A stretch of DNA of 64,000 nt from Pseudonocardia sp. SCN 73-27 (lineage in GTDB: Bacteria > Actinomycetota > Actinomycetes > Mycobacteriales > Pseudonocardiaceae), in the NCBI RefSeq assembly GCF_001725415.1, contig NZ_MEGH01000019.1, positions 2,795 through 66,794 of the forward strand, in the 5' to 3' direction. A program made the position numbers and the translations under genes. Positions 5,109-16,103 of the stretch are shown here, in pieces; the stretch's first letter is position 1, and each line of letters begins with the position of its first letter. Below the pieces are notes generated by a model. It had not been told where the DNA came from and ran no database searches. It saw only the letters and a program-made list of their open reading frames with translations.

Positions 5109-5846
5109 TCAGCGGCCGGGGAGCTCCTTGACGGCGCCTTCCATGACCAGCGAGTCGGTCGTGCTCACCAGGTGGGCGAGCATCGCGTCGGCCGCGGCCG
5201 GGGCGTCGCCCGAGCGGATCGCGTCGTAGATGCGACGGTGGTCGGCGAGCGACGTGGCCGGCTGGCCGCTGCGCGTCAGCGACGTGGCCGAGGTCCGGTC
5301 GAGCGCCTGGCGCATGCTGTCGAGCAGGCTGATCAGGATGGGGTTGTGCGACGCCGTCGCCACCCCGACGTGGAAGCGGCGGTCGCCGACGAGGCCTGCC
5401 TCGCCGGCGTCGATCTCGCGTTCCATGTCCTCGAGCGAGGCGGCGAGATTCTTGAGGTCGGACTCGGTGGCCCGGTGCGCAGCGAGGCGGGCGCACTGCG
5501 TCTCGAGCGCCTGGCGCGTCTCCCAGATGGCCGGGTGGTCGATATGGGTCTCGACGAGCTCGGCCGCGAGCGAGGGGATGAGGTCCTCGGGGCGGCGGAC
5601 GAGGTAGATGCCGTCGCCGTGGCGGACCTCGACCTCGCCACGGGCCCGCAGCGCGGTGATGGCCTCGCGGATCGAGGAGCGTCCGACCGAGAGCTGGCGT
5701 GCGAGGTCCCGCTCCGTCATGAGCCGGTCGCCCGGCTGGAGCTGGTTGACGTCGATGAACTCGCGCAGCCGGTCGCTGACCTGTTCGTACAGCGGTCTGC
5801 GGTCCACCGGCCTGATGGGGGCGATCGCCTGCCGGTCCTGACTCAT
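5109..5846 (-). CDS. GntR/FadR-family transcriptional regulator
   Basis: N-terminal wHTH (LQPGDRLMTERDLARQLSVGRSSIREA) and FCD domain (DRRFH...ASHN, DHRRIYDAI). Confidence 0.93.
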   Translation of the reverse strand: MSQDRQAIAPIRPVDRRPLYEQVSDRLREFIDVNQLQPGDRLMTERDLARQLSVGRSSIREAITALRARGEVEVRHGDGIYLVRRPEDLIPSLAAELVETHIDHPAIWETRQALETQCARLAAHRATESDLKNLAASLEDMEREIDAGEAGLVGDRRFHVGVATASHNPILISLLDSMRQALDRTSATSLTRSGQPATSLADHRRIYDAIRSGDAPAAADAMLAHLVSTTDSLVMEGAVKELPGR

Positions 5847-5892
5847 GACACCCCCACGAAGGCGATGCTCGCGCGATCGCCAGGTGATCTGC

Positions 5893-5905
5893 TGGTCCGA
5901 TCCTA
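5893..5905. promoter_or_regulatory. Degenerate FadR-type operator overlapping a candidate -10 (TAGGAT, minus strand) of the regulator gene
   Basis: TGGTCCGATCCTA resembles the two TGGTCTGACC sites downstream. Confidence 0.4.
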
Positions 5906-6130
5906 CCCCGCCGCGACAGCCCCACCCGGATGCCGTGGAGCGGCGGGCGGGACAGGAGATGAGGCGGTGGGGGAGATTCTCCGCGGAGGCGGCGCGGCAG
6001 TGGGTGCGCGCGCCGTGGCGGGAACCGCACCGTACGGTGAAATCGCCGGTGTCGTTGCGGCGCAACGGGTCGAGGTCGCGGCGACGCGCCGGCAGAGCAG
6101 GTAACGACCAGGTCACGGGCGATGAGATGG

Positions 6131-6169
6131 TTGACACACAGGGGGCTCGTCATCAAACTGGTCTGACCA
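6131..6169 (+). promoter_or_regulatory. Candidate sigma70 promoter (TTGACA-17-CAAACT) overlapped by FadR-type operator TGGTCTGACCA
   Basis: TTGACA 6131-6136, CAAACT 6154-6159, palindrome TGGT-N3-ACCA 6159-6169. Confidence 0.65.
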
Positions 6170-6243
6170 CCAGATGACCGTGCCATGCGATGCGGTGGTG
6201 AAACCCCGCCCCCTCTGCAAGACATGACAGCGAGGAGAATGAC

Positions 6244-6723
6244 GTGCGCGCTCTTGCGGCCCTCGGTTTGACGATCGGTGTTCTGGTCGGTGTGTGGGTC
6301 TACGTCAGTGGACTCGTCGACCTGCCTCCGTGGGTCACCGTCATCATCTGGGCCGGCTTCTTCGCCGCAGGCGGCAAGTTCGGAGGCGTCCTCAGGATGG
6401 GTGCCGCCAGCCTCTCCGGCGTGCTGTGGGCCTGGCTCGCGGTGACCATCGCCGGCCTCTTCGGTGGTGCGGCGTTCGCGCTGCCCGTCATGGTCGCGAT
6501 CGCCGCGTTCATCATGTGCGTCCAGGCCGGTTGGTCGCCCCTGTCGTTCATCCCGGGGACCTTCATGGGCGCCGCGTGTCTTTTCGGCACGTCGATCGAC
6601 GTCACGTCCACGGTGATCTGCATCGTGATAGGCCTCGTCCTCGGGTTCATCTCCGAGTGGTCTGCCGGCCTGATCAGCGGTGCCGGCGAGGAGACGACCG
6701 CCGACGCTGCAGCAGGCGCTTGA
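6244..6723 (+). CDS. DUF1097-like integral membrane protein
   Basis: Hydrophobic 159-aa protein with W..FFAAGG and FIPGTFMGAACLF motifs; GAGGAG RBS before GTG. Confidence 0.75.
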   Translation: MRALAALGLTIGVLVGVWVYVSGLVDLPPWVTVIIWAGFFAAGGKFGGVLRMGAASLSGVLWAWLAVTIAGLFGGAAFALPVMVAIAAFIMCVQAGWSPLSFIPGTFMGAACLFGTSIDVTSTVICIVIGLVLGFISEWSAGLISGAGEETTADAAAGA

Positions 6724-6733
6724 GTTGCTGTCC

Positions 6734-6748
6734 AAATTGGTCTGACCG
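6734..6748. promoter_or_regulatory. Second FadR-type operator, upstream of the glutamine-synthetase-like gene
   Basis: AAATTGGTCTGACCG versus AAACTGGTCTGACCA at 6155-6169. Confidence 0.6.
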
Positions 6749-6770
6749 CCTGACCTGTTAGGAGTAGTCG

Positions 6771-8204
6771 ATGGGTTCCACCTTCATCCAGCACCACGGC
6801 TTGTGGAGCGCTGAGCAGCAGGACCAGGCCGACAAGATCGCGGCCCAGGTCAAGGAGCAGGGCCTGCGCCAGGTCCGCGTCGCCTGGGGTGACCAGCACG
6901 GCATCCTGCGCGGCAAGACCCTCGAGGCGGGTCACTTCCTGTCGGTCCTGCGCAACGGCAAGGACTTCCAGACCGCCACCCTGATCTTCGACACCACGAA
7001 CAACCCGGCCGTGCCGCCGTTCGCGGCCGACGGCTTCGGCGACCCGCGCATGACCGGTCTGCCCGACGGTGTCCTCGTGCCCGACCCCGGCACCTTCCGC
7101 ATCCTGCCGTGGCTCGACAGGACCGGCTGGGTCCTGTGCAACCTGCACTACCGCTCCGGTGAGGTCGTCCCGTTCGACACCCGCGGCATCCTGCAGTCGC
7201 AGCTCTCGCAGCTGAAGAACGAGGGCTGGAACTTCCTCGCCGGCATCGAGCTCGAGTTCTACATCACCAAGCTCGAGGACCCGCGCCTGTCGTTCGAGCA
7301 GAGCGGCTACCCGCCGGACCCGCCCCAGGTCAGCGCCGTCTCCCACGGCTTCCAGTACCTGACCGAGAACCGTGGCGACGAGATCGCCGGCATCCTCGAC
7401 ATCCTGCGCGACAACGTGGTGGCCCTCGGCCTGCCGCTCGCCACCATCGAGGACGAGTGGGGCCCCGGCCAGACCGAGTTCACGTTCGACGTGATGGAGG
7501 GCCTGGAGGCCGCCGACTCGGCGATCCTGCTGCGCAGCGCCATCAAGCAGCTCTGCCGCCGCAACGGCTACCACGCCACCTTCATGTCCCGCCCGGCCCT
7601 GCCGAACGCGTTCTCGTCCGGCTGGCACCTGCACCAGTCGCTGGGCAACGCCGAGATCGGCAACGCCTTCCCCGGCGGCGACGACGAGGTCCTGTCGGAC
7701 ACCGGTCGCCACTGGATGGCCGGCCTGCTCGAGCACGCGCGCTCCTGCTCGCTGCTCAGCACTCCCACCGTCAACGGCTACAAGCGCTACCTGCCCGACT
7801 CGTTCGCCCCGGACCGCATCGCGTGGGCCGAGGAGAACCGCGGCGCGCTCATCCGCGTCGCCGGTGGCCGCGGCGACGCGAACACCCACCTGGAGAACCG
7901 CGTCGGCGAGCCGGCCGCGAACCCGTACCTGTACCTGGCCTCCCAGGTCATCTCGGGCCGCGACGGTCTGCGCAACAAGCTCGACCCCGGCCCCTCGGCC
8001 GACGAGCCGTACCAGGCCGAGGCCGAGCGCCTGCCGGGCTCCCTGGAGGAGTCGATCCAACTCTTCGAGCAGAGCAGCCTGCTCCGTACCGAGCTCGGTG
8101 ACCCGTTCATGGAGTACCTGTCGACGGTCAAGGGCAACGAGGTCAAACGCTTCAACTCGGCAGTGACCGACTGGGAGCAGCGCGAGTACTTCGAGGTCTA
8201 CTGA
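6771..8204 (+). CDS. Glutamine synthetase-like gamma-glutamyl:amine ligase (TdnQ/AtdA1-like)
   Basis: GIELEFY, EDEWGPGQTE, SGWHLHQSL, ENRGALIR and LENRVGEPAANPYL. The N-terminus (FIQHHGLWS..EQ, PDPGTFRILPWLDRTGWVLC) resembles TdnQ rather than GlnA1. Confidence 0.88.
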   Translation: MGSTFIQHHGLWSAEQQDQADKIAAQVKEQGLRQVRVAWGDQHGILRGKTLEAGHFLSVLRNGKDFQTATLIFDTTNNPAVPPFAADGFGDPRMTGLPDGVLVPDPGTFRILPWLDRTGWVLCNLHYRSGEVVPFDTRGILQSQLSQLKNEGWNFLAGIELEFYITKLEDPRLSFEQSGYPPDPPQVSAVSHGFQYLTENRGDEIAGILDILRDNVVALGLPLATIEDEWGPGQTEFTFDVMEGLEAADSAILLRSAIKQLCRRNGYHATFMSRPALPNAFSSGWHLHQSLGNAEIGNAFPGGDDEVLSDTGRHWMAGLLEHARSCSLLSTPTVNGYKRYLPDSFAPDRIAWAEENRGALIRVAGGRGDANTHLENRVGEPAANPYLYLASQVISGRDGLRNKLDPGPSADEPYQAEAERLPGSLEESIQLFEQSSLLRTELGDPFMEYLSTVKGNEVKRFNSAVTDWEQREYFEVY

Positions 8205-8205
8205 C

Positions 8206-9252
8206 GTGATCGACGACGCCGGCGCGGGGGTGCCGGGACTTCGGGTCCTGGCAGCCTCCCGTCTTCCGGACCCGGACCCGCGATCGACTCTCACGGTCGC
8301 GGCCGCCCAGCTCGGCGGACGGTGGCTCGACGTCGGTGCGCGCATGAAGCGTCTCGCGGAGGCGGCCCAGGTGGCCGCCTCCGCGGGGGCTCAGGTGCTC
8401 GCCTTCCCTGAGACCTACCTGTCCGGTTATCCCTTCTGGCTCACCCGTACGCACGGCGCCAACTTCGACGACGCTGCGCAGAAGCAGTGCTACGCCTACT
8501 ACCTCGACTCGGCGATCGAGGTCGGCGGTCCGGAACAGCGCGAGCTCGAGGCTCTCGCGACCGACCTCGGCCTGACGATGTACGTCGGGATCACCGAGCG
8601 TGGGCATGGCCCGGCCAGTGGGTCGACCTACTGCACGCTCCTGGCGATCAAGCCCGGCGACGGGCTCGTCGGCCACCACCGCAAGCTCGTCCCGACCTAC
8701 GACGAGCGTCTGGTGTGGGCGCAGGGCGACGGCGCGGGTCTGCGGACCCACGCGGTCGGCGCGGCTCGCGTCGGCGGGCTGAACTGCTGGGAGAACTGGA
8801 TGCCGCAGGCGCGGCACGCCCTGTACGCAGACGGCGAGCAGGTGCACTTCAGCACGTGGCCGGGCGCGAGCTCGATCTGTGCCGACGTCACCCGCTTCAC
8901 CGCACTGGAGGGTCGCGTCTTCGCGATCTCCACATCGGGCATCCTCACCCTCGACGACGTCCCGGACGACTTCCCGCTGCGCGACGAGCTGCACGCGAAC
9001 TCGTCGGAGATGCCGTTCGACGGTGGTTCGGGCATCGCCGCCCCGGACGGAACGTGGCTCGTCGAGCCCGTCAAGGGCGAGGAAGGCCTGATCGTGGCCG
9101 ATCTCGACCTCCGGCAGGTCGCGCAGGCCCGCCTGACCTTCGACCCGACCGGGCACTACAGCCGGCCGGACGTCTTCGGCGTCACCGTCGACCGCACCCG
9201 GCGGGAAGCGGTGTCGTTCACCGATTCGAGCGATTCCGAGGCGAAGCAGTGA
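8206..9252 (+). CDS. Nitrilase (branch 1-type carbon-nitrogen hydrolase)
   Basis: Catalytic triad FPETYLSGYPFW (Glu), HRKLVPT (Lys), LNCWENWMP (Cys); C-terminal DPTGHYSRPDV. Confidence 0.93.
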   Translation: MIDDAGAGVPGLRVLAASRLPDPDPRSTLTVAAAQLGGRWLDVGARMKRLAEAAQVAASAGAQVLAFPETYLSGYPFWLTRTHGANFDDAAQKQCYAYYLDSAIEVGGPEQRELEALATDLGLTMYVGITERGHGPASGSTYCTLLAIKPGDGLVGHHRKLVPTYDERLVWAQGDGAGLRTHAVGAARVGGLNCWENWMPQARHALYADGEQVHFSTWPGASSICADVTRFTALEGRVFAISTSGILTLDDVPDDFPLRDELHANSSEMPFDGGSGIAAPDGTWLVEPVKGEEGLIVADLDLRQVAQARLTFDPTGHYSRPDVFGVTVDRTRREAVSFTDSSDSEAKQ

Positions 9253-9968
9253 CTGACAGCGGAACGGCCCCCGGCGCCCGGGCGGCCGAGGACACGATCC
9301 TGGTCGTCCAGCACCAGGACGACGCCGGCCCCGGCAACCTGGGGGAATGGCTGACCGACAGCGGGCTCCCGTGGGAGCTCGTCGACGCGTCGGTCGGCCC
9401 TCTGCCGGCGCCCGCTCGGTTCCGCGCCCTCGTCGTCCTCGGCAGCCGTGAGGCCGCCTACGACGAGAACGTGGCGTGGCTCGAGGCAGAGAAGGACTTC
9501 GTCCGCGCGACGATGGCGCGCGGCACGCCCATGTTCGGCATCTGCTTCGGCGCCCAGCTCCTGGCGCTGCTGCTGGGCGGGACCGTACAGAAGGCCGCGA
9601 CCATCGAGCGCGGCTGGATCCCGGTCTCCCAGTCGGTCGACGCGTCCGAGGACGACTACGCCGAGCTGGTCGACCACACGTGGTTCGAATGGCACGGCGA
9701 CGAGATCACCGCGCCCGGCTCGGCGGAGATCCTCGCCAAGGGCAGCTGTGTGCAGGCGTTCCGCCAGGACGGGCACCTCGGCGTGCAGTTCCACCCCGAG
9801 GTGACCGAGACGCAGCTCGTCCAGTGGATGGACAGCGACCGTCGGCTCACGTTGCTCGCCGAGGCCGGCGGGGAGCGGGCCGACCTGCTGGCGGACACCG
9901 CGAAGCAGCTCCCCGACGCGATCCCCGCGGCGCACCGCCTCTACTCCCGGTTCTTCCTGGGCAGGTAG
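9249..9968 (+). CDS. Class I glutamine amidotransferase-like protein (candidate gamma-glutamyl hydrolase)
   Basis: GICFGAQ nucleophile elbow, WHGD and QFHPE; GTGA overlap with the nitrilase. Confidence 0.9.
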   Translation: MTDSGTAPGARAAEDTILVVQHQDDAGPGNLGEWLTDSGLPWELVDASVGPLPAPARFRALVVLGSREAAYDENVAWLEAEKDFVRATMARGTPMFGICFGAQLLALLLGGTVQKAATIERGWIPVSQSVDASEDDYAELVDHTWFEWHGDEITAPGSAEILAKGSCVQAFRQDGHLGVQFHPEVTETQLVQWMDSDRRLTLLAEAGGERADLLADTAKQLPDAIPAAHRLYSRFFLGR

Positions 9969-10140
9969 AACGGGGAAGCGGTGGTGCCCCCCGACCAAGG
10001 CCGGCACCACCCCCCACTCGCCCGCCCCCCGGGCGCCGCCCGAGGAGCCTCCCGCTCGAGGTTCCGCGCGCCTGGAGGGAGTCGAGCCCCTGTTCCCGAC
10101 GGCTGCCGGTGCCGCACCCCCGGCGGCCGTCGGATCGACG

Positions 10141-10626
10141 TCAGTCCTGGTCAGCGCCGGCGACGGCCTCCCGCAGCGCTGCGCGTTGCCGGTCGACGAC
10201 CGCGCCCAGCTCGGCCACGAACCGGTCGTAGGACTGCGCGCCGAGCGCCTGCCGGTGCCGGTCGGCGATCTCGGCCATGATCGCGTCGGCCGTGCGCATC
10301 TGGTCGCGACCGCGCGCGGTGGGGCCCACCAGCTTGGCTCGCCGGTCGGCCGGGTCGGGTCTGCGTTCGACGTATCCCAGCTCCTCGAGCTCGTCGACGC
10401 TCTTGCCGATGACCTGTTTGTGCTGCCCGGACAGCCGGGCCAGCTCGGTCGCGCGGATTCCGCCGACCTGCAGGTAGGCGAGGACCGCGCCGTGGCGCGG
10501 CGCGATGTCGTCGAAGCCTGCGCGGTGCAGGCGTGCGTAGAGCTCTCCCTGCACCGCGAACAGCAGCCGTCCCGCGAGGACGCCGATGTCGGTCGCCTCG
10601 TCCCGGCGGCCGGGGCCGTCGCTCAT
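10141..10626 (-). CDS. MarR-family regulator
   Basis: GIRATELARLSGQHKQVIGKSVDELEELGYVERRPDPADRRAKLV. Confidence 0.9.
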   Translation of the reverse strand: MSDGPGRRDEATDIGVLAGRLLFAVQGELYARLHRAGFDDIAPRHGAVLAYLQVGGIRATELARLSGQHKQVIGKSVDELEELGYVERRPDPADRRAKLVGPTARGRDQMRTADAIMAEIADRHRQALGAQSYDRFVAELGAVVDRQRAALREAVAGADQD

Positions 10627-11026
10627 CGTCGCCTCCCTCGTGCGCTCGTGCTGAACTCAGGGCGGAAGCCTAACGCCGCGCCCGCAGCGCTGGAGGCCTG
10701 TTGCGCCGCACCGGTTCCAGAGGCCTGGACGGCCTGGACGGCCTGGCGTGAGGGTGTGCCGTTCGATCGAGCTTCGACGTCGGTAGAAGTTTCTGTCTAC
10801 GGTGTGTCGTCGGGGAGGTGGGTCGGGGCCCGGTTCGGCCCGAGCGGGTGGCCGAGGTCGCGCGCATCATGGAGTACGGCGATGCCCGCGCCGCGAACGC
10901 GGCCCGCTTCTCGCCGGCGGCGGTCTGAAACGGCCTCCGGATCTGCTCCCGAACCGTTGCGCCGCTGGTACAGCGGCCGGACGGGTTGTACGGCCGACGA
11001 GCCCGTGGTTGACGGACCGTCCACCC

Positions 11027-11068
11027 TGTGTAGATAATTCTTGCAATCAGGATACGTCTCGTATCTTG
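11027..11068 (+). promoter_or_regulatory. Upstream element of the aldolase gene: shared 18-mer plus adjacent palindrome
   Basis: TGTGTAGATAATTCTTGC (17/18 identical to 13274-13291) followed by CAGGATACG-TCT-CGTATCTTG. Confidence 0.6.
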
Positions 11069-11182
11069 GGGTGTATGCCGTAAGCAGTAGTGGAGCGGCC
11101 CATCTTGCCGGGAGGTTGGGCGGGCGTGCGCATCGTCGCTCGCGCCACTGCGCGGACCGAGTTCGTTCGATTGGGAGGCGTG

Positions 11183-12001
11183 ATGACCGCGACGCAGGAT
11201 GTGAAAGTCGTCGACCACGACGAGGACGAGGCCCCCGTCCTCCTCGACGACCCGGAGCCCGAGAAGTCCCTCGAGCGCTCCGTGGAGGAGGAGCGCGAGC
11301 ACCGCAAGCGCGTCCTCGCCACCGGTTTCCGCATGTTCGCCCGCTACGGCTTCGAGGAGGGCGTGGCCGGCCACATCACGGCGCGCGACCCCGAGATGCC
11401 CGACCACCTCTGGGTCAATCCCTACGGCGTGCACTTCTCGCGCATGAAGGTCAGTGACCTGCTGCTGCTCGACGGTGACGGCAAGGTCGTCGGCGGCAAC
11501 AAGCGCACCAACAAGACCGCCTTCGCGATCCACGCGGCCGTCCACGACGCCCGCCCCGACATCGCGGGTGTCGCTCATGCGCACACCCTGCACGGCCGGG
11601 CCTGGGCGGCGCTGTCGCGTCCGCTCGACCCGATCATCCAGGAGTCGTGCGCGTTCTGGAACGACCACGTGGTCTTCGAGGAGTACCGCGGCCTGGTGCT
11701 CGACAAGTCCGAGGGTGAGGCCATCGGCGAGCTCATGGGCATGAAGAAGGCCGCGATCCTGCGCCACCACGGTCTGCTGACCGTCGGCCGCACGGTCGAG
11801 GAGGCCATCTGGTGGTTCATCACCATGGACCGCGCCTGCCAGATGCAGCTGATGGCCGAGGCCGCCGGCACCCCGCGGATCATGACCGACGAGGAGGCCA
11901 AGCTGGCCCACCGTCAGTTCGGCAACGCCAACCAGGCGCGGCACAGCTTCGAGCTGCTCGCCGACATCATCCAGGAGGAGGAGCCCGAGGTTCTCGACTG
12001 A
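11183..12001 (+). CDS. Class II aldolase/adducin-fold protein, NovR/CloR-like
   Basis: EGVAGHITARDP, WVNPYG, metal ligands HAHTLHG and LRHHG; GGAGG RBS. Confidence 0.85.
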   Translation: MTATQDVKVVDHDEDEAPVLLDDPEPEKSLERSVEEEREHRKRVLATGFRMFARYGFEEGVAGHITARDPEMPDHLWVNPYGVHFSRMKVSDLLLLDGDGKVVGGNKRTNKTAFAIHAAVHDARPDIAGVAHAHTLHGRAWAALSRPLDPIIQESCAFWNDHVVFEEYRGLVLDKSEGEAIGELMGMKKAAILRHHGLLTVGRTVEEAIWWFITMDRACQMQLMAEAAGTPRIMTDEEAKLAHRQFGNANQARHSFELLADIIQEEEPEVLD

Positions 12002-12097
12002 GAACCCCGCGCAGCGGTCGACGCGGAGCCGGTGACCCCGGCCCGCGTCATCAGTGCCCGGTCCTGTGTGGCCCCGGTCGGCGGATCCCGGCCGGGG

Positions 12098-12679
12098 TCA
12101 CTTCTCTTCGGAGAGCACGTCGAGGTCGGGCACACCTGGTCTGACCAGGACGAGCATCACCTTCGTGGGCGCGTCGCCGTTGTTGGTCAGCTGGTGGCTC
12201 AGGTCGCCCGGGACCATCGCCACGTCGCCGGACTGCAGGTCGATCCGGTGCGTTCCCGATCGCACCTCGATCGCGCCCTCCATGACGATGAAGACCTCCT
12301 TGGCGCCCGGCGAGTGCGGGTGGAACGGGCCCGCGGAGCAGTGCGGGGGGAGCGTGTACCGCACGATCTCCACGCCTTCCAGAACCGGGAGCACCGACTC
12401 CCGGATCGCGCCCGTCTCGTCGTCGACGAGGCTGACGCCACCATCGCCCCGCACCACCTGGACCTCGGACGAGGCGCCCGCGACCGACAGCATCGTCGCC
12501 AGCGGGACCTGCAACGCATCGGCGATCCGTGCCGCCGACGACAGGCTGGGGTTCCGTTCGCCGCGTTCGATCTTCGACAGGGTCGCCCGGGACACGCCGC
12601 TGAGCGTCGCCAATGACTCGAGGCTCAGCCGTGCCTGGTGCCGGCGCAGGCGCAGGCGTGCTCCGAAGCTCGCATTCAC
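12098..12679 (-). CDS. XRE-family HTH regulator with C-terminal cupin
   Basis: LSLESLATLSGVSRATLSKIERGERNPS and cupin HSPGAKEVFIVMEG...GDLSH. Confidence 0.9.
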   Translation of the reverse strand: MNASFGARLRLRRHQARLSLESLATLSGVSRATLSKIERGERNPSLSSAARIADALQVPLATMLSVAGASSEVQVVRGDGGVSLVDDETGAIRESVLPVLEGVEIVRYTLPPHCSAGPFHPHSPGAKEVFIVMEGAIEVRSGTHRIDLQSGDVAMVPGDLSHQLTNNGDAPTKVMLVLVRPGVPDLDVLSEEK

Positions 12680-12690
12680 AGGAAGTGAAT
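12674..12690. promoter_or_regulatory. Palindrome ATTCAC-N5-GTGAAT over the XRE start codon (candidate autoregulatory operator)
   Basis: Perfect 6-bp inverted repeat in the 63-bp divergent gap and start region. Confidence 0.55.
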
Positions 12691-12742
12691 ATCACGGCCG
12701 GCCGTGAGGTCGGCGCGACCCGCACGTCAGGAGGAACTCCCG

Positions 12743-13066
12743 ATGCCCTTCGTCGTCACGACGGCCTGCCTCGACATCCTGGACCGCAGCTGCCTGGACC
12801 AGTGCCCGGTGGACTGCATCTACCTGGGTGAACGCATGACCTACATCAATCCGGACGAGTGCATCGACTGCGGAGCGTGTGAGCCGTCGTGTCCGCAGAA
12901 CGCGATCTTCCACATCGACGACCTGCCCGCGGAGGAGGCGCATCTCGCGCCCGTCGCGGAGAGGTTCCTGCGCACGATGCGCGCGGTCGGCGGCAACATC
13001 GACCGCGGGCCGCTCGGCGCGGACCCGCCGGAGATCGCGGCACTGTCGCCGCGCGCCCAGGACTGA
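12743..13066 (+). CDS. FdxA-type [3Fe-4S]/[4Fe-4S] ferredoxin
   Basis: C..ILDRSCLDQCPVDCIY and CIDCGACEPSCP; GGAGG RBS. Confidence 0.92.
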   Translation: MPFVVTTACLDILDRSCLDQCPVDCIYLGERMTYINPDECIDCGACEPSCPQNAIFHIDDLPAEEAHLAPVAERFLRTMRAVGGNIDRGPLGADPPEIAALSPRAQD

Positions 13067-13273
13067 GTGAGGCGCGCGGCGGCGTCGCCGACGTCGCCTT
13101 CCCGGGGGCGGGCAGTTCGGACGCGGCGTCCGCGGCGAGTCGGCCCGTCGGGACACCCGGCCGACCCCGTTCACGGTGCCGGCGCACGACAGGCGACCTG
13201 CGACGAAGCCGGGCGAACCCTGCAGCGACGAACTCGGTCCGGATCCGGCGAGAGTGTTGACCGACACACCCCA

Positions 13274-13291
13274 TGTGTAGATACTTCTTGC
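13274..13291 (+). promoter_or_regulatory. Second copy of the 18-mer, upstream of the MHS transporter
   Basis: TGTGTAGATACTTCTTGC. Confidence 0.6.
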
Positions 13292-13318
13292 TCACAAGAC
13301 TCTTCTAGTGGAGGTCGT

Positions 13319-14683
13319 ATGTCTGGCGAGACGGCCAAGTTGGACACACCAGTGTCGGCACGAAAGATCGCGCTCGCGAGCGCGATCGGGACGACCATCG
13401 AGTGGTACGACTTCCTGATCTATGCGACCGCTGCATCGCTGGTCTTCGGCAAGATCTTCTTTCCGACCGGCTCGGCCCTCGTGAGCAGCCTGCTCGCGGT
13501 GTCGACCATCGGCGCCGGCTTCCTCGCCCGGCCCCTCGGCGCGATCGTGCTGAGCAACTACGGTGACAAGGTCGGCCGCAAGTCCCTGCTCGTCGGGACA
13601 CTCGGCGCGATGGGCATCGCGACCACTTTGATCGGCCTGCTGCCGACCTACGCCCAGATCGGTATCTGGGCGCCGATCCTGCTGGTGCTGCTGCGCCTCG
13701 TGCAGGGGATCGCGGTCGGTGGCGAGTGGGGCGGCGCCGTGCTGATGGCGATCGAGCACGCGCCGCGCAACCGTCGCGGCTTCTACGGCAGCCTCGTGCA
13801 GATCGGGTTCCCCGTAGGCATGGCGCTCGGGACGTTCTCGTTCCTGCTGCTGGCCCTGCTGCCCGAACCGCACTTCCTGTCGTGGGGCTGGCGCATCCCG
13901 TTCCTCGTCAGCGCGGTCCTCGTGGTGGTCGGGCTCGTCATCCGGCTCAAGGTCACGGAGTCACCGGAGTTCGAGGCGTCGCGGGAGAAGGGCGAGCTCG
14001 TCAAGTACCCGGTGTGGGAGGCGGTGCGCAGGCACCCCAAGAACCTGCTCATCGGCCTGGGTGCGCGCATCACCGAGCTGTCGTGGATCTACGTTCTCAC
14101 GATCTTCGCGCTCGAGTTCGCGACCCACACCCTGCACATCCCGCGGACCTTGGTCCTCGCGGCGATCGGGATCGGTGCGCTGCTCGAGCTCGTCACCGTT
14201 CCGTTGTGCGGGGCGCTGTCCGACCGCGTCGGGCGCCGCGCCATCTACATCGCCGGGTCGGTCGCGGCCGGGCTGCTCGCGTTCCCTGTCTTCTGGGCCA
14301 TCGCCAGCCGTGAGGGCTGGGCCGTCGTGCTCGCGTTCACGATCGGCATGGCCGTCGGGCACGGCGTCATGTACGGCGTGCAGGCGAGTTTCCTGTCGGA
14401 GATGTTCGGCGCCAACGTCCGCTACAGCGGGGCGTCGCTGGGCTACCAGCTCGCCGCGCCCATCGGCGGCGGCCTGGTGCCGGTACTCGCGACCTGGATC
14501 GTCGGCGTCTCGGGCGGCACGTGGGGCGTGTCGGTGATGATGATCGTGCTCGCGCTGATCACCGTCGTCGCCGTCTACTTCGCAAAGGAGACGGCCGCTG
14601 GGAAGGCTGGGGGCACGAGTTCCGCGCACTCCGACAGCACCCAGAGCGTCTCTCCTCCGGGGGAGATCACCGTCACGTCGTGA
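13319..14683 (+). CDS. MFS transporter, MHS (metabolite:H+ symporter, ShiA-like) family
   Basis: GTTIEWYDF, GDKVGRK, RLVQGIAVGGEWGGA and WGWRIPFL; about 12 TM segments. Confidence 0.93.
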   Translation: MSGETAKLDTPVSARKIALASAIGTTIEWYDFLIYATAASLVFGKIFFPTGSALVSSLLAVSTIGAGFLARPLGAIVLSNYGDKVGRKSLLVGTLGAMGIATTLIGLLPTYAQIGIWAPILLVLLRLVQGIAVGGEWGGAVLMAIEHAPRNRRGFYGSLVQIGFPVGMALGTFSFLLLALLPEPHFLSWGWRIPFLVSAVLVVVGLVIRLKVTESPEFEASREKGELVKYPVWEAVRRHPKNLLIGLGARITELSWIYVLTIFALEFATHTLHIPRTLVLAAIGIGALLELVTVPLCGALSDRVGRRAIYIAGSVAAGLLAFPVFWAIASREGWAVVLAFTIGMAVGHGVMYGVQASFLSEMFGANVRYSGASLGYQLAAPIGGGLVPVLATWIVGVSGGTWGVSVMMIVLALITVVAVYFAKETAAGKAGGTSSAHSDSTQSVSPPGEITVTS

Positions 14684-14811
14684 GAAGGGCTCCGTCCAGG
14701 TGGGTCAACCCCGGTGTCCGGTGACATCGGGGCCGGCCCGGCCGACGGTCGGTGCGTGTCCACCGCTGTTCGCGGCGGCCGCGCCGCTGACGGGCCCCCA
14801 CCGGGACGGGC

Positions 14812-15093
14812 TCAGCTCGCCAGGCGCATCGCGCGGGCTGCGGCGCCGCGCTGGGCGACGAGGCGCGCCGAGGAGTCGTGTCCGGCCAGGTGACAGTCCC
14901 AGGCCGTGTCGACGAGCCGTCTCAGCGTCGTGGAGACGAGGCCCGCGGGGAGTGCCGCAACCGCGATCTCGGCCCGGTGGAGTGCATCGGTGACGGCGCG
15001 GGACGTGGGTTCCGCGCGGAGGGCGCCGATGGCGGTGTCGACGGCCTGGGCCGCCCAGTGGAGCGAGCCCATGGCGGCAGCTCTCGTGGCCAT
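14812..15093 (-). CDS. Hypothetical 93-aa helical protein
   Basis: GGAGG RBS before ATG and GC3-biased codons; no family recognised. Confidence 0.6.
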   Translation of the reverse strand: MATRAAAMGSLHWAAQAVDTAIGALRAEPTSRAVTDALHRAEIAVAALPAGLVSTTLRRLVDTAWDCHLAGHDSSARLVAQRGAAARAMRLAS

Positions 15094-15133
15094 GCTGCAC
15101 CTCCTCGATGGTCGGGATGTAGCCTCTAGCTCA

Positions 15134-15195
15134 TCTTGGTCAAGGTAGCATTGACCGCGGTGCAGTCAAGAAGAGGTTGACGGGTTTGACCAAGA
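15134..15195. promoter_or_regulatory. Tandem GTCAA-N7-TTGAC palindromes inside a 10-bp inverted repeat
   Basis: GTCAA-N7-TTGAC at 15139-15155 and 15165-15181; TCTTGGTCAA 15134-15143 and TTGACCAAGA 15186-15195. Confidence 0.65.
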
Positions 15196-15437
15196 AAAAG
15201 GTGTTCGCGCAGGTCAGGGACGCGGCCGACGAGCTGGAGACCTCCACCGACGAGCTGGTCCGCCTCGCCGCGGCGCGCACCCTGCGTCAGCTCGCCGAGC
15301 AGGTCGAGCGCGAGGTCGTCGACGACGCCCGCGCAGCCGGGGTCCGCTGGATCGACATCGGCGAGGTCTACGGCACGTCGAAACAGAGCGTCCAGCAGCG
15401 CTTCACCGCGCGCCGGGCAGCGGCCACCGAGAGCTGA
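15177..15437 (+). CDS. Small HTH DNA-binding protein
   Basis: C-terminal ARAAGVRWIDIGEVYGTSKQSVQQRF HTH. The TTG start is uncertain and possibly leaderless. Confidence 0.75.
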   Translation: MTGLTKKKVFAQVRDAADELETSTDELVRLAAARTLRQLAEQVEREVVDDARAAGVRWIDIGEVYGTSKQSVQQRFTARRAAATES

Positions 15438-15469
15438 CTGTGAGGCCGGCGGGTCAGCCTCCGTCGACA

Positions 15470-15697
15470 ATGACGCATGTTGACCCCCCTGAGCCGGATC
15501 GGCACCCGGATCGGGGGGCCTGGCTTGACACTCCTCGACGCGCGTCGTGAACCTGGGACCAGCCTCGACGCGGAGTGCCGGAGGAAACGTTGAACGCCGA
15601 CGAGTGGAGCGAGACCCACCGGCTCCACGCCGAGGGGATGTCCGTCAAGGGCCTCGCCGCGCACCTCGGGATGCCGCGCAACACCGTCCGCCGCGCG
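15470..15697 (+). mobile_element. IS21-family left-end remnant with truncated IstA transposase N-terminus (36 codons, 15590-15697)
   Basis: LNADEWSETHRLHAEGMSVKGLAAHLGMPRNTVRRA matches the IstA HTH pattern (EDWAEIRRLH..EGM.I..IAR.LG..RNTVRRA). Upstream TTGACCCCC resembles IS21 terminal repeats. The left boundary is approximate. Confidence 0.65.
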
Positions 15698-15701
15698 CCG
15701 G

Positions 15702-16103
15702 ATCACGCTGGAGAAGAAGCGCCCCGGCTACCCGACGGTCGTCGGGGACTCGGAGATGTTCCGCCGCGGCTTCGTCGAGCACGACGCGCTGCTGCAGGCC
15801 GCCCGGCTCTACGTCTACGACGTGCACGCCGAGGCCGAGGCCGCCGCGGCCGCCGGCACGATCACCGACGAGCACCGCGCCCGGCTGCGCCAGGCCGCGA
15901 CCTGGGTGCAGAAGGTCGCCCAGGACATCGTGACCTGGGCCTACAACTGGGGCGGCTCCGCCTCGATCCGCAACCCGAGCGTTCTCGGCCGCTGCCTGCG
16001 CGACATCTCCGTCGGCGCCCAGCACATGCTCGTCGAGCCGATGACGCTGGTCGAGGCCTCGACCCCGATCATCGCCGGCTACCTGAACAAGGAGAACGCC
16101 TGA
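15702..16103 (+). pseudogene. C-terminal fragment of an acyl-CoA dehydrogenase-fold flavin monooxygenase (HsaA/IacA-like)
   Basis: GGSASIRNPSVLGRCLRDISVGAQH; the N-terminal two thirds are missing and replaced by the IS remnant. Confidence 0.7.

Follow-up and report, generated by a model that had tools for sequence, protein, structure and literature searches.

To our knowledge, O2-dependent oxidative decarboxylases of the NovR/TqaM type are so far known only from antibiotic and fungal biosynthesis. At a three-histidine iron site, NovR and CloR catalyse two oxidative decarboxylations that depend on O2 and pass through a mandelate intermediate (PMC13111500); in the substrate complex of TqaM a 2-hydroxy acid chelates the metal via its carboxylate and C2 hydroxyl and is held by G73, H74, N123 and Q166 (PMC13351049). 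As for the regulators concerned, XRE-cupin factors of Pseudomonas are dimeric repressors that bind palindromic sites, thereby blocking the promoters of one or two neighbouring genes for enzymes or transporters, and they are thought to be released by a metabolite of the pathway (PMC7901475). Here, we describe a locus in a stretch of 64,000 nucleotides from Pseudonocardia sp. SCN 73-27 (contig NZ_MEGH01000019.1, positions 2,795 to 66,794 of the forward strand, hereafter the window), in which a class II aldolase-fold gene related to NovR and TqaM and the gene of an MHS-like transporter each stand behind a promoter bearing the same putative operator dyad, with an XRE-cupin regulator encoded between the two genes. 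The explanation that we favour, with moderate confidence, is a local XRE-cupin unit in which the two dyad-bearing promoters would serve the NovR/TqaM-like enzyme and the MHS symporter for the decarboxylation of an acid.

The two promoters and the putative operator dyad

An earlier note on this DNA had reported two AT-rich 18-mers, 17/18 identical, upstream of the aldolase-fold and transporter genes, and both their positions and their identity were verified: TGTGTAGATAATTCTTGC lies at 11027-11044 (+) and TGTGTAGATACTTCTTGC at 13274-13291 (+). With up to three mismatches, these two copies are the only ones in the window, shuffles of which gave no match, and the only ones in the whole 6.95 Mb genome (72.6% G+C, 99.99% complete). 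The 18-mers have 33% and 39% G+C, and their sites are the lowest-G+C 30-mers within 9000-16000.

A consensus scan of 10600-14900 returned exactly two sigma-70-type promoters, which are the two motif sites, vs. 0.1 in shuffles. The 18-mer spans the end of the promoter spacer, the -10 element and six further bases that form the left half of a dyad; the shared element is thus real, but what had been presented as an 18-bp motif is not an operator by itself, being a -10 hexamer plus half of the inverted repeat. Local alignment of the two upstream regions confined their similarity to ~36 bp: a significantly similar stretch of ~30 bp, which ends at the 18-mer, and a shared TTGAC -35 hexamer just upstream of it. 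Since the flanks are at chance level, the two regions share a core promoter, and a long segmental duplication was rejected.

The complete dyad measures 16 bp (TTCTYS-N4-SRAGAA) and comes directly after TAGAnAn; in the window, both copies start inside or right after the -10 element and cover the expected transcription start. Four more promoters with the same layout (TTGAC, spacer, TAGAnAnTTCT, dyad) were found beyond the window, one in P. eucalypti and three in P. spinosispora. In the alignment of the six promoters from the three species, TTGAC, G-TAGA-A-TTCT and two right-arm positions are invariant, and arm complementarity over the six sites reaches 29/36 at a spacer of 4, vs. at most 14/36 at every other spacer from 0 to 8. 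The arms have also changed symmetrically, from TTCTTG...CAAGA in the window to TTCTC...GAGAA in the other species, as would be expected under selection by a dimeric binder of slightly altered specificity.

The distribution of the motif was analysed in 137 Pseudonocardia genomes, where G000 is this genome, G046 is N23, G127 is P. spinosispora and G018 is P. eucalypti. The composite pattern TAGANANTTCTY-N6-RAGA was found in only three of them, always at these six promoters, with one control match in the whole set. Concerning the promoter-anchored pattern TTGAC-N15-20-TAGANANTTCT, a scan of the four genomes gave only these six sites, none of them in N23, and all adjoin aldolase, MHS or XRE-cupin genes. 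A genome scan with the bare dyad gave a few background matches and was uninformative. Taken together, the genome-wide uniqueness of the 18-mer and the composite count exclude a widespread promoter consensus.

XRE-cupin orthologues were found in only 4 of the 137 genomes (G000, N23, G127 and G018); the gene adjoins a motif in all three motif-bearing species, and the cupin HxH...E...H metal motif is kept in all four orthologues. No match was found at E <= 1e-35 in 400 sampled genomes of the order, and a metagenome scan with the XRE-cupin alignment retrieved the same organism only (L054), the other matches being at most 42% identical and lacking aldolase, MHS or motif. From this co-occurrence and adjacency in three species, the XRE-cupin protein is probably the reader of the dyad, for which it is the best-supported candidate; the earlier note had left the choice between it and a regulator encoded elsewhere.

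Like ErfA, PsdR, PauR and PA0535 (Trouillon et al. 2021, PMC7901475) and E. coli PuuR, the protein has an N-terminal XRE helix-turn-helix and a C-terminal cupin domain, and it scores only 31.5 bits against the PuuR model. As in the Pseudomonas units, the gene stands beside one or two target promoters (enzyme, small-molecule transporter), the regulon is tiny, and the distribution is patchy, such units being easily lost. The palindromic candidate site overlaps the promoters of the flanking enzyme and transporter genes, as for the local repressors of that family. The differences lie in the actinomycete host, the orthologous group, the operator sequence and the target genes, and in the position of the regulator, which is encoded between its two putative targets and not divergently from one of them.

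In P. eucalypti, the XRE-cupin (55% identity), MHS (75%) and aldolase (82%) genes follow each other on one strand. The motif starts 27 bp past the XRE-cupin stop codon, ahead of the MHS-aldolase pair, and the MHS stop overlaps the aldolase start as ATGA, both genes forming one operon behind the same promoter/operator. This arrangement and the restriction of the motif to two promoters in the present genome support the co-regulated uptake and enzyme module that had been suggested before. In P. spinosispora, no MHS gene accompanies the aldolase gene (84%), and the three motif sites precede the aldolase gene, ridA-XRE-cupin and mmsA-amidohydrolase-amidase. The operators ahead of the last two lie within L052:8380-15661 (G127:C30), on promoters located on either side of the XRE-cupin gene, and the mmsA operon encodes a CoA-acylating (methyl)malonate-semialdehyde dehydrogenase (645 bits), an Amidohydro_3 protein, an unknown 401-aa protein and an amidase.

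The module is decayed in the sister strain Pseudonocardia sp. N23, whose DNA is ~88% identical (L008:3977-5251 and L008:6453-6580 vs. window 10309-11786 and 13045-14811). There, a GntR-family gene takes the place of the 5' part of a MarR gene, of the aldolase promoter and of the 5' end of the aldolase gene, which in addition lacks ~160 bp internally; the MHS gene and its promoter are absent. The XRE-cupin gene (91-92% identical) and the ferredoxin gene are kept, and no motif was found anywhere in that genome.

Distant aldolase orthologues (~68-72%) adjoin other XRE-cupin genes in G100 (L045:9354-9573) and G054 (L046 ~9280-9587), and a lone cupin gene stands beside another one in G077. At such loci, and likewise ahead of the aldolase gene in L043/L044, the repeat is a different one (GTTGCCTC-A-GAGGCAAC and TTGCCTC...AGG variants); several regulator/operator pairs may thus serve this enzyme family in parallel.

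The enzyme, the transporter and their probable substrate

The enzyme matches the uncharacterised NCBIfam subfamily PRK06208 (371 bits vs. a cut-off of 255). In the PDB sequence comparison, its best solved relatives are NovR (9ryg, E 1.8e-59) and then TqaM (E 3.4e-55), with ~43% identity to NovR over 235 residues, as counted by hand on the alignment. The three metal histidines are kept: H132, H134 and H196 correspond to H92, H94 and H155 of FucA and to the HxH and HG motifs of NovR and TqaM. FucA binds phosphate through N29, T43, S71 and S72, its catalytic residues being E73 and Y113 (PMC5216522). All of these are lost in the alignment with E. coli FucA, N29 being replaced by H, T43 by Y, S71/S72/E73 by N/K/T and Y113 by E. 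The fucA model gave 60.9 bits vs. a cut-off of 400 and the araD score is also far below its cut-off, and a Zn sugar-phosphate aldolase (FucA, AraD) is not supported on either ground. The NovR/CloR-like assignment of the earlier note is supported at the sequence level.

The four TqaM residues holding the substrate (G73, H74, N123 and Q166) correspond to G63, H64, N110 and Q153 of the window enzyme (HMMER alignment to 9m09). The serine by which TqaM contacts the beta-amino group is replaced by Ala62, so that the substrate is probably not a beta-amino acid. Because of the similarity to NovR and TqaM and the conservation of the residues contacting the carboxylate and C2 hydroxyl, O2-dependent removal of C1 is favoured, and the protein is best described as a putative Fe(II)/O2-dependent oxidative decarboxylase of a 2-hydroxy or 2-oxo acid. 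A 2-hydroxy or 2-oxo acid fits better than the keto acid alone that had been proposed before.

With NovR, CloR and TqaM the enzyme shares the class II aldolase fold, the three-histidine site, an N-terminal extension of ~35 residues and the loss of the FucA glutamate and phosphate site. Unlike NovR and CloR, it is encoded outside any biosynthetic cluster, its neighbours being MarR, XRE-cupin, ferredoxin and MHS transporter genes. No match to the ABBA prenyltransferases (PF11468; cf. CloQ/NovQ) was found in the genome, which is a weak negative as the control genomes were also silent. The pairing of the enzyme gene with importer and repressor genes suggests that an acid from outside the cell is catabolised.

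The pyruvic oxime dioxygenases (POD; 8IL8, 8IQA, 8IX6) have the same fold and a three-histidine Fe(II) site, and their essential N-terminal extension and small carboxylate substrate were counted as shared with the window enzyme. However, the match is far weaker (E 3.1e-25 to 8il8 and 2e-29 to 8ix6, vs. 1.8e-59 for NovR) and no nitrification context was seen. The reported POD homologues share 50-90% identity (PMC5216522), and close kinship to them was rejected on these E values.

Close orthologues of the enzyme (68-84% identity) are present in only six other genomes of the genus set. A distant paralogous aldolase group (~45-56% identity) is common in the genus, with one copy elsewhere in this genome; the paralogue at G000:C8:205373-206092 (L047:9275-10096; 45-49% identity) adjoins AraC-cupin regulator and DUF899 genes, and its group is present in ~60 of 136 genus genomes. 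A search of 400 genomes of the class gave no match at E <= 1e-100, a threshold which is probably too strict. The enzyme family is very common in actinomycetes: at E <= 1e-20, over 7,900 relatives were counted, and among the matches listed, the close relatives that bear a name are generically named actinomycete proteins.

As for the transporter, TIGR00883 matches its full length (E 6.5e-126) with 420.6 bits vs. a curated cut-off of 443.45, and the nearest named model, ShiA, gives 390.7 bits vs. a cut-off of 538. Membership of the MHS family (ShiA, KgtP, ProP, TcuC; TC 2.A.1.6) is probable, albeit with a score just under the curated cut-off; since the scores also lie below the cut-offs of every named equivalog, the family does not reveal the substrate. 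At four further Pseudonocardia loci (G018, G100, G045 and G131), aldolase-family genes have an MHS gene as neighbour, and this adjacency, together with the translational coupling in P. eucalypti, makes a functional pair likely.

The substrate is probably an imported 2-hydroxy or 2-oxo acid. In P. spinosispora, the genes of the regulon (ridA, mmsA, amidohydrolase, amidase) hint that the precursor contains nitrogen and that the route ends at (methyl)malonate semialdehyde, and this larger regulon may point to the pathway served by the NovR-like enzyme. In the present genome, these genes do not stand behind the motif: the nearest relatives of the P. spinosispora mmsA product (66% and 57% identity) are encoded on other contigs, where the motif is absent.

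The ferredoxin gene, which the earlier note had included in the module, has no motif and does not belong to the conserved unit: it adjoins the XRE-cupin gene only in the window and in N23, and neither the P. eucalypti nor the P. spinosispora loci contain it. That the ferredoxin might keep the enzyme iron reduced is speculative.

The proposed unit and the alternatives

In the scheme that we propose, whose DNA binder, ligand, metal, chemistry and substrate we infer from the described relatives and from the genomic context, the XRE-cupin protein would bind the dyad as a dimer and block RNA polymerase. A small molecule bound in the metal-type cupin domain, probably the transported acid or its product, would release the repressor, whereupon importer and enzyme would be made together. 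The enzyme would then hold a 2-hydroxy or 2-oxo carboxylate via its carboxylate and C2 oxygen at the three-histidine Fe(II) site and, if its chemistry follows that of its relatives, remove C1 oxidatively with O2.

Several observations weigh against this scheme. At the aldolase promoter, the dyad has a weak right arm (4/6), and the promoter of the XRE-cupin gene itself has no dyad in the window. The motif-bearing species are only three and are related, so that the counts are not independent. N23 keeps the XRE-cupin gene without any motif, and the regulator may be a relic there or may have another target, e.g. the divergent ferredoxin gene, a possibility raised by the good conservation of the XRE-cupin/ferredoxin intergenic region in that genome. 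At the level of the enzyme, NovR itself has a leucine where TqaM and the window enzyme have a histidine (H74 and H64, respectively), and the fold is shared with non-oxidative decarboxylases and an oxime dioxygenase.

The two promoters could be mere copies of one strong promoter, e.g. from the split of an ancestral MHS-aldolase operon, with no dedicated repressor. Such an origin accounts for a conserved block that includes the -35 and -10 elements and for window copies that are more alike than any orthologous copy, and operon fission with promoter copying is plausible given the single promoter serving both genes in P. eucalypti. It does not fit well with a similarity that stops after ~36 bp, nor with a dyad kept past the -10 element at six promoters, some of them ahead of non-homologous genes (ridA, mmsA), and a plain housekeeping promoter would need no conserved inverted repeat over the transcription start; as the pattern is also absent from the 134 other genus genomes, we consider this explanation very unlikely. 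It is also unlikely, albeit somewhat less so, that another regulator binds the motif, either the MarR protein encoded at 10141-10626 or a factor encoded elsewhere, and that the XRE-cupin protein controls the ferredoxin gene instead. The MarR and aldolase genes are indeed divergent, no dyad lies between the XRE-cupin and ferredoxin genes, and N23 retains both genes of that pair with their conserved intergenic region and no motif. However, the motif loci of P. eucalypti and P. spinosispora yielded no MarR homologue, the ferredoxin gene is absent from the loci of the other species, and it is the XRE-cupin gene that adjoins the motif in all three species, its orthologues being limited to the motif-bearing genomes and N23.

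A different chemistry is a more serious alternative, although we hold it to be doubtful: the enzyme could be a non-oxidative decarboxylase (as HMPDdc, PhtC and OtnC), an oxime dioxygenase (as POD) or an aldolase acting on an unphosphorylated acid. The fold family is functionally diverse (NCBIfam; PMC5216522, PMC11841055), NovR is labelled 'decarboxylase' in the PDB, and the (methyl)malonate-semialdehyde dehydrogenase and RidA of P. spinosispora would be easier to reconcile with an aldehyde or imine intermediate than with a simple acid as product. On the other hand, the matches to NovR and TqaM (E 1e-59 and 1e-55) are far stronger than those to POD (8IL8 and 8IX6; 3e-25 and 2e-29) and HMPDdc (2z7b; 8e-10), the scores are well under the cut-offs of the PhtC, OtnC and FucA models, and the TqaM residues for the carboxylate and C2 hydroxyl are conserved.

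The local XRE-cupin unit is a known kind of local metabolic switch and no new kind of system. It would extend the rule of XRE-cupin local functional units from Pseudomonas to a high-G+C Gram-positive bacterium, as a compact regulon of one regulator, one operator and two promoters around an enzyme whose characterised close relatives all belong to secondary metabolism. Tentatively, NovR/TqaM-type oxidative decarboxylases might have a widespread catabolic role in actinomycetes, coupled to MHS import and to ligand sensing by XRE-cupin proteins, which in some species would feed a route from (methyl)malonate semialdehyde to acyl-CoA (ridA, mmsA, amidohydrolase, amidase). If so, finding the substrate would assign a physiological role to thousands of proteins now named only 'class II aldolase/adducin family'. 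The operator and its putative regulator offer a practical route to this substrate, via the ligand that would release the repressor.

Gene calls and minor features of the locus

The gene calls of the earlier note (aldolase-fold, XRE-cupin, ferredoxin and MHS genes) were borne out by domain and family models, and the start codon of the aldolase-fold gene is backed by the alignment of its orthologues. The features of the locus are listed in Table 1.

Table 1. Genes, promoters and other elements of the locus, in window coordinates
Feature	Position	Strand	Description
Sigma-70-type promoter, aldolase-fold gene	11009..11038	+	TTGACG, 18-nt spacer, GATAAT; scan score 10/12
Putative operator dyad, aldolase promoter	11038..11053	+	TTCTTG-CAAT-CAGGAT; 4/6 positions complementary
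Class II aldolase-fold gene (NovR/TqaM-like)	11183..12001	+	272 aa; PF00596, E 2.6e-47, residues 45-223
Terminator-like G+C-rich hairpin	12068..12101	.	14 pairs, 11 of them G-C, then a T-rich tail; between the convergent aldolase and XRE-cupin genes
XRE-cupin transcription factor	12098..12679	-	193 aa; HTH_31/HTH_3 at residues 5-61, Cupin_2 at 107-177
FdxA-type ferredoxin	12743..13066	+	107 aa; NF045480 FdxA_Actino, 134 bits vs. cut-off 125; divergent from XRE-cupin
Sigma-70-type promoter, MHS gene	13257..13285	+	TTGACC, 17-nt spacer, GATACT; scan score 9/12
Putative operator dyad, MHS promoter	13285..13300	+	TTCTTG-CTCA-CAAGAC; 5/6 positions complementary
MHS-like MFS transporter (predicted organic-acid/H+ symporter)	13319..14683	+	454 aa; MFS_1 and Sugar_tr

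The MarR-family gene upstream of the aldolase gene (10141-10626, -) is divergent from it, across a gap of 556 bp that takes in 10627-11008 and has no confidently coding open reading frame; only the last ~45 residues of this gene remain in N23. Further upstream, an operon for a GS-like ligase, a nitrilase and an amidotransferase (5109-9968) was considered as a partner, since its nitrilase could give 2-hydroxy acids from cyanohydrins. This link was ruled against: N23 keeps the operon (~94% identity) and loses the aldolase and MHS genes, and the adjacency was seen in no other species.

An Rfam scan of 9000-16000 for riboswitches or known RNAs in the leaders gave a single chance miRNA match. The predicted aldolase leader is 138 nt long here and much shorter for the P. 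spinosispora orthologue; a structured leader was rejected, as its fold is no better than that of shuffles (z = 0.04). At its predicted 5' end, a stem of ~10 bp (11047-11069; core GATACG-TCT-CGTATC, 11051-11065) shares bases with the right arm of the dyad.

The divergent XRE-cupin and ferredoxin genes are separated by 63 bp (12680-12742) that are well conserved in N23 and contain GTGAATATCAC and TTCAC-N5-GTGAA repeats. A GATATT element is located 9 nt ahead of the GTG start of the XRE-cupin gene, the mRNA of which may lack a leader.

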